This document shows, piece after piece, positions 15,600 to 24,287 of a stretch of 44,912 nt of DNA. The translations under genes and the position numbers were made by a program. Each line of letters opens with the position of its first letter. The first letter of the stretch is position 1. The DNA comes from an uncultured Candidatus Saccharibacteria bacterium (lineage in GTDB: Bacteria; Patescibacteriota; Minisyncoccia; Portnoybacterales; UBA2143). A model generated the notes under the pieces. It did not search any database and was not told where the DNA came from. It saw only the letters and a list, made by a program, of their open reading frames with translations. The stretch is from assembly GCA_964494655.1 (NCBI GenBank), contig CAZBRM010000002.1, forward strand, positions 1 to 44,912. Reading direction: 5' to 3'.

Positions 15600-17339
15600 A
15601 TGGCTTTAACGAATTTTAATACAAAACGAATACAAGAAAAACTAGCTAAAATTAGGAGGGAAGAAGAAGAAGAAGAAGCGAAAAGAACAGCCAAAAAGTT
15701 CGATCTATCGTATGTTAACCTAACAATTACACCGATTGATTATGAAAATTTAGCAAATATACCAAGAGAAAAGGCGGAACAAGGAAACATAATCGTTATA
15801 CAGAGAAAAAACCGCGTTATCGGTTTAGCTTTAACGGATCCCGGTAATCCAAAGGCGAAAGAAGTAATTGAGGAACTTAAAAATAAAGGATTTGAATGTA
15901 AAATATTTGTAGTATCTCTCACAAGCTTAAAAAAAGGATTGGGATATTATAATATAATTGAACAACATATAAAAGAACGTCCCTTGAGAAGCGTTCTTAT
16001 TATCCAAATAAAAGAGTTAGAAGAATTTAAAGAATCTCTGCAAACTGTTCAAAAATTAGAAAAAACAATAAACGTATTGCCCACAAGCCGTTTGTTAACA
16101 ATTATTATGGCCGGAGCAATTGAAATGAAAGCTTCAGATATCCATATCGAACCTTCTGAAGAAAACATAAGATTAAGGTATAGAATTGATGGTCTTTTAC
16201 AAGACATTGTTGATTTTCCAATGAACCAATACACTTTCCTTCTTTTAAAAATAAAAATGCTTTCAGATATGCTTCTTAATGTTCATGATATAAGCCAGGA
16301 TGGAAGATTTTCAATTAATATTTTGGATGATGAAAAAATAGAGCAAGCAATTGATCTTAGAGTATCTGTATTGCCAAGCAGTAAAGGAGAAAGTGTTGTT
16401 ATTCGCCTTCTTGGATTGTCAACTATTAAATTAGATATTAGGGGGTTAGGCATAAGACTAGATTTATTTAATATAATAAAAAACCAAATAAACCAACCAA
16501 ATGGAATGATTCTGGCTACTGGACCAACTGGTTCTGGAAAAACAACAACGCTTTACGCCTGCTTAAATTATGTTAATAAACCAGGCAAAAAAATTATTAC
16601 CGTAGAGAATCCCGTAGAGTATCAATTAAAAGGCGTTACTCAAACACAAATAAGCAGAAGAAAAGGACACACATTCGGCAAAGCGCTTAGATCAATAGTT
16701 AGACAAGACCCTGATATCTTAATGATCGGAGAAATGAGAGATGAAGAAAGCGCTGAAATTGCAATACAATTTTCTTTAACAGGCCATCTTGTTTTTTCTA
16801 CATTACACACAAATAATGCTGCCGGAGCAATTCCAAGATTAAACGGAATGGGAATTGATTCGCCATCGCTTGCGGCAGCCATTAATATGGTAATTGCCCA
16901 AAGATTAGTTCGAAAATTATGCACGCACTGTAAAAAAGAATACCAGCCAACCAAAGAAGAATTAGTTATAATAAAAAAAATAATTTCAAGCATTTCAGAG
17001 AAATCGGGAATTAAAATTCCAAAAAAAATAACTAATCTATACCAGGCAGAAGGATGCTCTAAATGCCATGGATTAGGATACAAGGGAAGAATCGGCATTT
17101 TTGAGCTTTTTGTTATTAGCGATGAAATTAAAACAATTATTTTAAAAAGGGGAGCAGACTATCAATTGCAAGCTAAAGCCGAAGAAGAAGGGATGACAAC
17201 TCTTATGCAAAGCGCAATATTAAAAATGGTTGAAGGCGAAACCACTTTAGAAGAAATAAAAAGAGTAATTGGATCTCCTGAATTATCAGCAAAACAATTA
17301 TCAAATAAAGAAGAAAAGAAAATAAAAAAAATAGAATAA
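15600..17339 (+). CDS. GspE/PilB-family type II/IV secretion (type IV pilus assembly-type) ATPase
   Basis: 579 aa with an N-terminal GSPII_E_N-like region, Walker A GPTGSGKTTTLYA, Asp box, Walker B ILMIGEMRD, His box TGHLVFSTLHTN, and tetracysteine CTHC...CSKCHGLGYKGRIGIFE. Confidence 0.92.
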   Translation: MALTNFNTKRIQEKLAKIRREEEEEEAKRTAKKFDLSYVNLTITPIDYENLANIPREKAEQGNIIVIQRKNRVIGLALTDPGNPKAKEVIEELKNKGFECKIFVVSLTSLKKGLGYYNIIEQHIKERPLRSVLIIQIKELEEFKESLQTVQKLEKTINVLPTSRLLTIIMAGAIEMKASDIHIEPSEENIRLRYRIDGLLQDIVDFPMNQYTFLLLKIKMLSDMLLNVHDISQDGRFSINILDDEKIEQAIDLRVSVLPSSKGESVVIRLLGLSTIKLDIRGLGIRLDLFNIIKNQINQPNGMILATGPTGSGKTTTLYACLNYVNKPGKKIITVENPVEYQLKGVTQTQISRRKGHTFGKALRSIVRQDPDILMIGEMRDEESAEIAIQFSLTGHLVFSTLHTNNAAGAIPRLNGMGIDSPSLAAAINMVIAQRLVRKLCTHCKKEYQPTKEELVIIKKIISSISEKSGIKIPKKITNLYQAEGCSKCHGLGYKGRIGIFELFVISDEIKTIILKRGADYQLQAKAEEEGMTTLMQSAILKMVEGETTLEEIKRVIGSPELSAKQLSNKEEKKIKKIE

Positions 17340-20958: not shown

Positions 20959-21171
20959 ATGCCACAATATCGGTTAGAATGGCAAAAAACGGAGCAAATT
21001 GAAGGAGCAATAATAACAATCAACTGCGCGAAAGACATTATTGTTAATTGTACAGAAAAAAATCCTGATAAAATAGCTGGAAAAGAAGCCAAAGAAATAT
21101 TTGATAAGCTCCCAGAATTTTCAGCTACTCTTAAAAAGATAGTTGTTCATTTTCAAAAAGAATTTACTTGA
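20959..21171 (+). CDS. small hypothetical protein (70 aa)
   Basis: Strong SD (aaaggagga) about 10 nt upstream of the ATG, TGA stop, followed by a hairpin plus T-tract. No family recognised. Confidence 0.45.
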   Translation: MPQYRLEWQKTEQIEGAIITINCAKDIIVNCTEKNPDKIAGKEAKEIFDKLPEFSATLKKIVVHFQKEFT

Positions 21172-21180
21172 CACAAAAGC

Positions 21181-21220
21181 AAAGCTGGAACAATACTGTT
21201 TCGGCTTTTTCTTTTTTCTC
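21181..21220 (+). terminator. rho-independent terminator candidate
   Basis: aaagctggaac (21181..21191) pairs with gtttcggcttt (21198..21208) in an 11-bp stem including 2 G:U pairs, with loop aatact, followed by ttcttttttc. Confidence 0.45.
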
Positions 21221-21228
21221 CTTTTCCA

Positions 21229-21257
21229 TTGACACCTTTTATTACTCAAAGTATTAT
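21229..21257 (+). promoter_or_regulatory. sigma70-like promoter candidate for yebC-ruvC
   Basis: TTGACA (21229..21234), a 17-nt spacer, then TATTAT (21252..21257). The SD-like agaggg and ATG 21282 lie downstream. Confidence 0.4.
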
Positions 21258-22297: not shown

Positions 22298-22960
22298 ATG
22301 TCTATTATAACTCAATATATGATTAATCAAGGCGTATCAAAAGAAGCAATCATCCTGCTTTTAATGCTTCCTGTTGTCGCAACAATCATTGCTTTTGCCA
22401 GACAGGTTATCGGCATTAAAGGATTTGGAATTTACACACCTTTAATTATTGCTTTTGCATTTTTAGCTACTGGATTAAAATACGGCTTGGCTTTTTTTAT
22501 AATAATCATTCTTGTCGGCACATTAACCAGATTGGTTGTTAAGCGCTTTAGATTATTATATCTTCCTAGGATGGCAATTATTTTAACAGCAGTAGTGTTA
22601 TCTATTCTTATTGTCTTTTTAGAAGGAGCTTATTCAGGACGAAATGGATTAACAGCCGCTTCTATTTTTGCTATTGTCATTATGATTATATTGGTTGAGA
22701 AATTCATAGCATCTCAAATAGAAAGAGGAAATAAAGAAGCAATCATTTTAACTATCGAGACCTTAATTCTTTCTATTATTTGCTACTGGGTTGCTATTTG
22801 GCCATGGCTTAAAAATTTTACTTTAACTTATCCTTTTTTTATTATCATGGGGACTATTGTAATAAATATATTATTAGGCAAATGGACAGGATTAAGAATT
22901 TCAGAATACGCGCGTTTTAGAAAAGTAATTAAATCTATTGAGCCATCTGAAAAAAAATAA
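22298..22960 (+). CDS. 7TM membrane protein of the 7TM_transglut (PF14402-like) family, lacking the transglutaminase-like domain
   Basis: 220 aa with about 7 hydrophobic helices. The segment PVVATIIAFARQVIGIKGFGIYTPLIIAFAF matches my recollection of the conserved first-helix/loop motif of this family. Gene context with a TIGR02291-like ligase agrees. Confidence 0.7.
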   Translation: MSIITQYMINQGVSKEAIILLLMLPVVATIIAFARQVIGIKGFGIYTPLIIAFAFLATGLKYGLAFFIIIILVGTLTRLVVKRFRLLYLPRMAIILTAVVLSILIVFLEGAYSGRNGLTAASIFAIVIMIILVEKFIASQIERGNKEAIILTIETLILSIICYWVAIWPWLKNFTLTYPFFIIMGTIVINILLGKWTGLRISEYARFRKVIKSIEPSEKK

Positions 22961-22967
22961 TCTTGTT

Positions 22968-24287
22968 ATGGTTGATTTTTTAAAAAAATCTAAAAAGCTT
23001 TTGGGCATTAATGCCCGTAATCTCACTTATTTACGGCCCTCTAATTCTTTGAGGGCTATTCGTATTGCTGATAATAAACTTTTAGCTAAAAAGATACTAT
23101 CAAGAAATGGATTGCCTGTTTTGCAAACATATTCAGTTGTCAAAAAAATTGAAGAACTTAGAACGTTTGACTGGACAGGACTGCCATCAACCTTCACTTT
23201 AAAGCCCAATAAAGGGTTTGGTGGCGAAGGCATCCTTGTTATATATGGACGAAAAAAGAAACCGCCTTATCCTTGGGTTAAAGCAGATAAGAAATTAATT
23301 GAAATAAAGGATTTACAAAGCCATATTCTAAATATTTTAGAGGGTAATTTTTCTAGAACGATCCTTCCTGATTTTGCCTTTTTTGAAGAAAGAATTAAAC
23401 TTTTAAAATTATTTAAGCCATATAGCTACCGCGGTATACCAGATATTAGAGTTATTGTATATAATTCGGTTCCAGTAATGGCTGAAATGAGATTCCCAAC
23501 AAGAGAATCAGGCGGCAAGGCAAATCTTCATCTAGGAGGAATTGGAGTTGGCATTGATATGGGCACAGGAACTACCACGACAGCTATACAAAATGATAAA
23601 ATAATTGAATATATTCCAAAAACAAGATTATCGTTAAAAGGGATGCAAGTGCCTGAGTGGAAAGAAGTTTTACAACTTGCCATTAATGCTCAACAAATAA
23701 CTAAAATCGGCTTTCTTGGCATAGATATTGTTATTGACAGGGAAAAAGGACCAATAATTTTGGAGCTTAATGCAAGACCGGGATTATCTATTCAAATTGC
23801 TAATTTAGCCCCGCTCAACGAGCGATTACAAAGAGTTAAAGGTCTTAAAGTAAAAACAATAAAAAGAGGGGTAAAATTAGCGCAAGATCTTTTTGGAGGA
23901 GAAATAGAAGAAGAGTTAGAAGAAATTTCAGGAAGAAAAGTTATTGGTATTAATGAACCAATAGAAATTTTAGATGGAGAAAAAAATAGATATCCAACAA
24001 TGGCTAAAGTTGATACGGGCGCTTATAGAACAACGTTATGTAAAAATTTAGCCGAACAATTGGGAATTAATCAGATTATTGGTTATAAAAAAGTAAGAGG
24101 AGCTTTAGGTTCTGAAGAAAGATCTATTATTAATTTCTCATTTTATTTGGATAAAAGATTAGTAAGCACTGAAGCTTTTATAGCTGATCGAGAGGAATTG
24201 AAGTATGATATTATTATCGGAAGAAAAGATCTAAAAAGATTCTTAGTTGATCCCGCAAAAAATGTTTTTATGGGAAGGAGAGGATAA
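22968..24287 (+). CDS. fusion protein: RimK-related alpha-L-glutamate-ligase-like ATP-grasp (TIGR02291-like) + DUF785/'Zn_protease' retropepsin-like peptidase domain
   Basis: N-terminus: LLGINARNLTYLRPSNSLRAIRIADNKLLAKKILSRNGLPV...KPNKGFGGEGI...ANLHLGGIGVGID...GIDIVIDREKGPIILELNARPGL. C-terminus: IGINEPIEILDG....MAKVDTGAYRTTL...RGALGSEERSIINF...FIADREELKYDIIIGRKDLKRFLVDP. The track start at 22938 is TTG; the ATG at 22968 follows the upstream stop by 7 nt. Confidence 0.8.
   Translation: MVDFLKKSKKLLGINARNLTYLRPSNSLRAIRIADNKLLAKKILSRNGLPVLQTYSVVKKIEELRTFDWTGLPSTFTLKPNKGFGGEGILVIYGRKKKPPYPWVKADKKLIEIKDLQSHILNILEGNFSRTILPDFAFFEERIKLLKLFKPYSYRGIPDIRVIVYNSVPVMAEMRFPTRESGGKANLHLGGIGVGIDMGTGTTTTAIQNDKIIEYIPKTRLSLKGMQVPEWKEVLQLAINAQQITKIGFLGIDIVIDREKGPIILELNARPGLSIQIANLAPLNERLQRVKGLKVKTIKRGVKLAQDLFGGEIEEELEEISGRKVIGINEPIEILDGEKNRYPTMAKVDTGAYRTTLCKNLAEQLGINQIIGYKKVRGALGSEERSIINFSFYLDKRLVSTEAFIADREELKYDIIIGRKDLKRFLVDPAKNVFMGRRG

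Follow-up and report, generated by a model that had tools for sequence, protein, structure and literature searches.

A fused RloC-type ATP-grasp ligase and retropepsin-like peptidase in Patescibacteria: a candidate two-gene Rlo-type module

Relation to the Rlo and Rim systems

The Rlo system of Pseudomonas aeruginosa and P. fluorescens, described in 2025 as a RloA/RloB/RloC operon, combines secreted RloA peptidases that cleave poly-Glu in vitro with RloB, an inactive periplasmic transglutaminase fused to a seven-transmembrane (7TM) domain, and RloC, a cytoplasmic ATP-grasp enzyme (bioRxiv 10.1101/2025.03.18.643919). The loss of all three RloA peptidases is suppressed by deletion of rloB or rloC, from which it follows that the peptidases act on the RloB/RloC product; in Pseudomonas the system influences osmotic tolerance (under hypo-osmotic conditions), susceptibility to antibiotics, the formation of biofilms, and cell shape, and 96% of the RloB matches are proteobacterial (bioRxiv 10.1101/2025.03.18.643919). 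Here, we analyze a gene in a 44,912-nucleotide (nt) stretch of DNA from the mostly uncultured Patescibacteria (the window, in whose numbering all positions are given) that joins an RloC-type ATP-grasp ligase to a retropepsin-like peptidase in one polypeptide. Our preferred reading, which we hold to be reasonably probable, is that this locus is a compact two-gene Rlo-type module native to Patescibacteria, in which ligase and peptidase act on the same product and the 7TM protein encoded next to them is an obligate partner.

The gene occupies a single uninterrupted + strand frame that starts at 22938 (TTG) or 22968 (ATG) and ends at 24287 (Table 1). The ATG start, adopted in an earlier reading of this DNA from the sequence only, is right because homologs align from that methionine and gene callers give the identical product; residue numbers refer to this form unless stated otherwise. 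The ligase half matches ATPgrasp_ST in Pfam (PF14397; E 2e-65, 221 bits against a cut-off of 31.4, residues 27–301 of the 449-amino-acid (aa) TTG form) and, in NCBIfam, the “alpha-L-glutamate ligase-like protein” family TIGR02291 (269 bits, profile positions 9–314 of 317). The RimK family TIGR00768 scores 56.7 bits against a cut-off of 143.4, which places the ligase outside the RimK type, and the PF08443 match is confined to a 42-residue stretch. Judged by these profiles, the ligase belongs to the RloC-type family, short of strict equivalog status. The match of the C-terminal half to PF05618 (Zn_protease/RimB-like) is borderline (27.3 bits against a cut-off of 27) and covers profile positions 66–133 only, i.e., the last ~65 residues, and a gag-asp_proteas match, also from Pfam, spans the N-terminal half of the peptidase module around the active site. 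The NCBIfam models for RloA3, RloA1, RloA2, and RimB match the C-terminus weakly (14–25 bits). The maximum 19-residue hydropathy of the fusion protein is 1.16, and it has neither a signal peptide nor a transmembrane segment; in the absence of any hydrophobic segment, both domains are cytoplasmic.

Table 1. Positions of the fused gene, its parts, and neighboring features in the window
Feature	Position (nt)	Strand	Description and basis
Ligase-peptidase fusion gene	22968..24287	+	439 aa, no internal stop; RloC-type ATP-grasp, acidic junction, retropepsin-like peptidase; soluble
ATP-grasp domain, residues 1-310	22968..23897	+	PF14397, TIGR02291, invariant Mg/ATP-site columns
Junction motif F309-GGEIEEELEEIS-G322	23892..23933	+	Short amphipathic acidic helix outside both domain profiles
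Retropepsin-like (PF05618 / DUF785 / RimB-like) domain, residues 323-435	23934..24272	+	Pfam, Ddi1 alignment, AF2 and Foldseek
7TM membrane partner, 220 aa	22298..22960	+	PF14402, 106 bits; RloB profile, C-terminal part
Second ATP-grasp enzyme, 498 aa	24292..25788	+	PF02655, weak PRK06524-like match; 4 nt downstream of fusion
Terminator-like hairpin	21181-21208	+	12-bp stem with T-run; consensus scan only
Sigma-70-like promoter ahead of yebC	21229-21257	+	TTGACA-17-TATTAT, 11/12 match; consensus scan only; 20 nt after hairpin

As for Rlo, the window locus encodes a retropepsin-like peptidase of family PF05618 with a DTG motif, a 7TM protein of family PF14402, and an ATP-grasp enzyme of PF14397/TIGR02291 in a tight operon, and among solved structures RloA is closest in fold to the peptidase domain. 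The 220-aa 7TM protein matches the RloB profile NF052267 at positions 312–507 of 508 only, the C-terminal 196 positions, and it therefore represents the membrane half of RloB without the inactive periplasmic transglutaminase domain. In 68 of 70 loci from different species, the 7TM gene immediately precedes the fusion, and the two exceptions are cut by a contig end. This position of an RloB-type 7TM gene identifies the locus as a probable two-gene variant of the three-gene RloA/RloB/RloC system. The locus also differs from that system: the peptidase, instead of being secreted by means of a signal peptide, is attached to the C-terminus of the cytoplasmic ligase, the junction between the two is acidic and invariant, an additional ATP-grasp gene is present, and the host belongs to the Patescibacteria.

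The sequence-only reading had taken RimK and RimB as comparators, which is borne out neither by the family scores (TIGR02291 269 bits, RimK family 57 bits) nor by the RloB-type 7TM neighbor; on this basis, the locus is not a RimK/RimB pair. That reading had further described the two activities as presumptive antagonists, a label that is too simple: RimB, a retropepsin-like endopeptidase that cleaves poly-Glu, also has a stimulating effect on RimK in the synthesis of poly-alpha-glutamate (PMC11957791). A natural RimBK hybrid, with the peptidase N-terminal and active on poly-Glu tails, has been described from Desulfotalea psychrophila (DP2392) (PMC11957791), and because of this enzyme the idea of a ligase-peptidase fusion has already been published. 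As in RimBK, a retropepsin-like peptidase and an ATP-grasp enzyme of the RimK superfamily share one cytoplasmic polypeptide in the window protein, but the order is reversed, with the ligase first, and the ligase is RloC-type rather than RimK-type. Moreover, the 7TM neighbor is obligatory at the window locus and absent from rim loci.

What is new here is the RloC::retropepsin architecture itself, the cytoplasmic location of the peptidase as opposed to secreted RloA and external 7TM-fused relatives, the occurrence of relatives in which the ligase-peptidase core is further fused to MATCAP-like carboxypeptidases or a second ATP-grasp domain, and the recognition of the “linker” as the most conserved 14-mer of the protein and a putative functional element. 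A literature search that did not extend to Iyer et al. 2009 (Mol Biosyst), reportedly the first to link these domains, found no paper describing the RloC-ligase::retropepsin architecture.

Active sites, predicted structure, and the acidic junction

In an alignment of 58 sequences (mean column identity 57%), the ligase residues K79 (of LKPN), E140, R142, D253, E266, and N268 are invariant, and the last three align with the Mg site of RimK, as Mg/ATP-site residues. In the peptidase, D349, G351, and G418 are invariant in the same alignment, and T350, A352, and R419 are kept in at least 90% of the sequences. Both retropepsin hallmarks are thus present, the DTG in D349-T-G-A (gat acg ggc gct, nt 24012–24023), and the GR in an IIGR motif with G418-R419. 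The entire domain aligns to the RVP domain of yeast Ddi1 (E 3e-4). Single-chain models from AlphaFold2 (AF2) have a predicted local distance difference test score (pLDDT) of 86.8 and a predicted template modeling score (pTM) of 0.70 for the full-length protein, and a pLDDT of 88.3 for the C-terminal 128 aa folded separately. In Foldseek comparisons, the top structural neighbors of the ligase part are ArgX/LysX, RimK, and cyanophycin synthetase, and the 128-aa C-terminal model matches P. fluorescens RloA best among PDB entries (9g58, E 7e-8), followed by the DUF785 protein Lpg0085 (2pma), RloA2 (9g59), Ddi1 RVP domains, and HIV-1 protease. A full single-lobe retropepsin domain (clan AA) makes up the C-terminal module. 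The sequence-only reading had proposed a complete DUF785 module with a DTGA signature and had singled out the presence of a catalytic Asp in a proper alignment as a point to examine; the end-to-end Ddi1 alignment, the predicted fold, and the invariant D349 agree with it on both counts. From the conserved residues, both halves of the protein look catalytically competent.

The stimulatory effect of RimB is relevant to an alternative in which the retropepsin domain is mainly a regulatory or oligomerization module that activates the ligase, with proteolysis secondary or lost. RimB binding raises the ATPase activity and polymer output of RimK independently of RpsF cleavage (PMC11957791), and altered active-site motifs are found in some relatives, i.e., DTS in P0165, DSGA in L024, and DTGN/DTGS in L060/L065. 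The invariance of D349 and G351, together with T350 and A352 at their high frequency and the retained GR hallmark, is however not what would be expected of a dead enzyme, and we regard a mainly regulatory role as distinctly unlikely.

The segment that connects the two domains, FGGEIEEELEEISG, is encoded by ttt gga gga gaa ata gaa gaa gag tta gaa gaa att tca gga (nt 23892–23933), with the motif GGEIEEELEEISG at nt 23895–23933. Residues E312–S321 belong to neither domain, since the match to TIGR02291 stops at G310 and that to PF05618 starts only near K324. Nevertheless, no other 14-residue stretch of the protein is as conserved as FGGEIEEELEEISG, which has a mean identity of 0.978 compared with 0.932 for the Mg-site motif ELNARPGLSIQIAN and is exact in 61 of 71 sequences. 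The junction codons vary synonymously, with Leu317 alone encoded by six codons, which means that selection acts on the peptide; constraint at the nucleotide level, as by an RNA element or a recent transfer, was rejected for the same reason. The “Glu-rich linker” of the sequence-only reading is therefore an acidic segment between the domains as claimed, but not a passive one: its conservation combined with synonymous codon drift argues for a functional element rather than a spacer. In the wider family, a large sub-clade retains LFGGEIE(E/Q)E(I/L/V)E(E/D)I(S/T)G, and more distant fusions have a different, non-acidic helix at this position (e.g., LFAExFxDKV). Use of the junction as a docking site specific for the 7TM protein is unsupported, as relatives with non-acidic junctions still have the 7TM neighbor. 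In the AF2 models, the pLDDT of the junction helix rises from ~56 in the full-length protein to 84 in the model limited to helix and peptidase domain, which hints at an association of the helix with the peptidase.

An alternative function for the junction would be self-processing. As retroviral proteases excise themselves from their precursors, the retropepsin domain could cut at or next to the acidic segment and free the ligase together with a dimeric peptidase, in which case the fusion would only ensure 1:1 co-expression. The position of the most conserved segment outside both domain profiles, its low confidence in the full-length model, and the mid-polypeptide location of the peptidase in the triple fusions described below are in line with such a cut, and the acidic stretch has the length, eight residues, of the minimal RloA substrate (8 Glu; bioRxiv 10.1101/2025.03.18.643919). 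The published specificities nonetheless argue against the junction as a canonical cleavage site, with the qualification that the peptidase here is divergent: RimB requires at least 5–6 contiguous Glu (PMC11957791) and RloA at least 8 (bioRxiv 10.1101/2025.03.18.643919), whereas the junction has at most three, interrupted by Ile and Leu. Furthermore, distant fusions replace the acidic motif by non-acidic helices, and no such motif occurs at the C-terminal junction of the peptidase in the triple fusions. Taken together, we find self-processing rather unlikely. A more elaborate version, to which we give very little credence, holds that the junction is a built-in substrate, and that the cut would expose the Glu-rich C-terminus of the ligase as a tethered primer or acceptor, turning the enzyme into a glycogenin-like self-priming polymerase whose finished chains the peptidase would release to the 7TM protein for export.

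In a protein of 539 aa (P0121), the catalytic domain of a class-I lysyl-tRNA synthetase (PF01921) is connected through MEIEEEVKETTGKK, a remnant of the acidic junction, to a peptidase domain that shares 63% identity with the one in the window. This protein is either a chimera produced in assembly or a genuine case of domain shuffling.

Distribution and alternative fusions

A homolog search over 5.8 billion proteins, clustered at 90% identity, returned more than 100 protein clusters of 435–452 aa with 65–100% identity to the fusion; nearly all are annotated with PF14397 and PF05618 together, under the names Patescibacteria, Parcubacteria, and Portnoybacteria. In a species scan with one genome per species, full-length relatives with 41–92% identity are present in 70 species-level genomes, all with an open frame of 435–485 aa, and the record titles refer to Portnoybacteria, Moranbacteria/Moraniibacteriota, and the Parcubacteria group. 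This is an old and native fusion, and the claim that ligase and retropepsin-like peptidase reside in one open reading frame (ORF) stands, given the open frame, the paired PF14397 and PF05618 matches, and the 70 genomes.

These data also bear on the concern, raised in the sequence-only reading, that adjacent ligase and peptidase genes had been merged by a missed stop or frameshift in annotation or assembly. In some database entries the peptidase part does appear as a small ORF of its own, as in P0127 and similar cases, where the ORF carries the last ligase helix; P0127, the one examined, was rejected as a stand-alone peptidase because its locus is itself a frameshifted fusion with the break inside the ATP-grasp domain. 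When short proteins were searched with only the peptidase part, no more than 6 fragments came up. With the frame intact in 70 independent genomes and more than 100 clusters, an artefact of this kind is effectively refuted, and the probability that we would still assign to it is negligible.

Within the assembly that contains the window (490 kb, 88.9% complete), the fusion is the single PF05618 locus. Among L025–L070, fusions of the Moranbacteria type have an insert of ~30–40 residues in the retropepsin domain, after approximately residue 372 of the window protein, and in a Portnoy-like subgroup (L060, L064, L065) residues are deleted at the same site and DTG[NTS] replaces DTGA. Many of the “binchicken” metagenome-assembled genome (MAG) records with the locus (L001–L067) are titled “uncultured Candidatus Saccharibacteria” or “uncultured Bdellovibrionales”, labels that are probably placeholders or wrong.

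Relatives of the peptidase were collected by comparing the C-terminal 142 aa with 1.84 billion representatives, which gave 502 matches at E ≤ 1e-3, and architectures were derived from the best 150 of these. About 52 have the ligase-peptidase architecture of the window protein. Another 8–9, of ~790 aa, continue from ligase and peptidase into a MATCAP/DUF1704 carboxypeptidase (PF08014), and two (P0229 and P0245) into a second ATP-grasp domain. Nine further proteins, including P0151, P0202, and P0203, have a 7TM domain preceded by a signal anchor and by one or two copies of the peptidase domain, and the genes for signal anchor-retropepsin-7TM proteins are immediately followed by an unfused ATPgrasp_ST gene that overlaps or abuts them. 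In these proteins the peptidase lies on the outer face of the membrane, as for secreted RloA, unlike the window fusion, where it is attached to the ligase on the inside. The window and 7TM-fused peptidase domains are mutually detectable (E 1e-13 to 1e-18); a tree of the domain (118 columns) is poorly resolved, with the 7TM-fused peptidases forming one supported clade. The closest truly stand-alone peptidases adjoin RimK-type ligases as rimB|rimK-type pairs, with no 7TM gene. The recurrence of the same three modules in other fusion patterns supports a functional module composed of peptidase, 7TM protein, and ATP-grasp enzyme.

Two loci illustrate the variation. In the Patescibacteria contig from GCA_964391305.1 (L074:1870-9674), an expanded module occupies the same position between yebC-ruvC and tyrS, and encodes a 516-aa PKD-PKD-7TM protein, an 800-aa ligase-peptidase-MATCAP protein, three additional ATP-grasp enzymes, and a second MATCAP-like protein of 575 aa. 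A non-Patescibacteria contig (L080:4001-7695) has a gene for a signal-retropepsin x2-7TM protein, its ATPgrasp_ST partner, and then a glutamate dehydrogenase gene, the last of which fits glutamate as a building block.

In the cycle of tubulin tyrosine ligase and MATCAP, too, one tail is served by both an ATP-grasp peptide ligase and a trimming peptidase, and cyanophycin synthetase contains an internal primer-generating hydrolase site. The MATCAP domain (PF08014) in the sister Patescibacteria fusions, and the presence of cyanophycin synthetase among the structural neighbors of the ligase, invite comparison with these systems, but the peptidase classes and substrates are different, and the likeness is one of analogy only.

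Proposed mechanism and gene neighborhood

Based on the homologies above, we propose that the ligase domain works in the cytoplasm and forms an amide-linked product, which is most likely a peptide or tail rich in alpha-linked Glu. The retropepsin domain would have to pair with a second copy, within a ligase oligomer, to form a two-Asp active site, and the attached peptidase would then cleave the same product in the same complex, setting the chain length and releasing chains or primers, as RimB does for RimK. The invariant acidic junction helix is likely to be a functional part of this complex. From the strict gene linkage, the 7TM protein is predicted to be an obligate membrane partner, either exporter or anchor, and the second ATP-grasp enzyme could be an accessory ligase that adds a further residue type or performs a priming step. 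Covalent coupling of synthesis and cleavage, as put forward in the sequence-only reading, is a sensible notion for one conserved polypeptide with its catalytic Asp in place, and the retention of the module in a genome of only 490 kb speaks for the two-gene Rlo-type reading.

Several points weigh against this two-gene Rlo-type reading. The TIGR02291 score of the ligase, 269 bits, is below the trusted (equivalog) cut-off of 314, and we know of no RloC-type ligase with a known substrate or product. Glutamate specificity is suggested by distant homology to RimK alone (~57 bits). The peptidase is found in different places, in the cytoplasm here, secreted in Pseudomonas, and outside in the 7TM-fused relatives, so that its site of action, and perhaps its role, differs between lineages. 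Finally, an acidic acceptor like RpsF was sought in the C-terminus of the 7TM protein and rejected. For this protein, an N-out/C-in topology is predicted from hydropathy and a manual positive-inside count, which would place the conserved tail GKWTGLRxSEYxRFR in the cytoplasm, but beyond GLRxSEYxRFR the extreme C-terminus is basic and variable.

If the two-gene Rlo-type reading is correct, the Patescibacteria form constrains the chemistry of Rlo in three respects: ligase and peptidase work on the same molecule, close enough to be one protein; the indispensable part of RloB is the 7TM half and not the transglutaminase domain; and the peptidase is able to act on both faces of the membrane, in keeping with a product synthesized in the cytoplasm and handed to the outside. 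The fusions with MATCAP-like carboxypeptidases and further ATP-grasp ligases point to a family of peptide-tail or peptide-polymer machines that is retained even in genomes of ~0.5 Mb. As a soluble single-chain enzyme, the fusion protein would also be a convenient object for Rlo biochemistry.

The gene order yebC-ruvC-7TM-fusion is kept across Portnoy- and Moran-type genomes and also in more distant relatives. From ruvC onward, the intergenic gaps in the window are 4–7 nt, and the Shine-Dalgarno sequence of the second ATP-grasp gene, GGAAGGAGAGG, lies inside the end of the fused gene; this second gene is found downstream of the fusion in 20 of the 24 closest loci. No gene rpsF, which in the Rim system encodes the acceptor, ribosomal protein S6 ending in Glu-Glu, occurs within the window. 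Maturation of graspetides or other RiPPs (peptides made on the ribosome and modified after translation) was considered and is unsupported, given the RimK/LysX/ArgX structural type of the ligase and an operon with no precursor gene.

Upstream, the terminator-like hairpin and the promoter listed in Table 1 separate a 70-aa ORF (20959..21171) from yebC, and the promoter probably starts a transcription unit of yebC, ruvC, the 7TM gene, the fusion, and the second ATP-grasp gene. Elsewhere in the window, a 579-aa ORF (15600-17339, +) contains six contiguous Glu at residues 21–26 (IRREEEEEEAKR), the only run of at least four Glu in the window, and since this length is cleavable by RimB in vitro, the run is a possible target of the peptidase domain.

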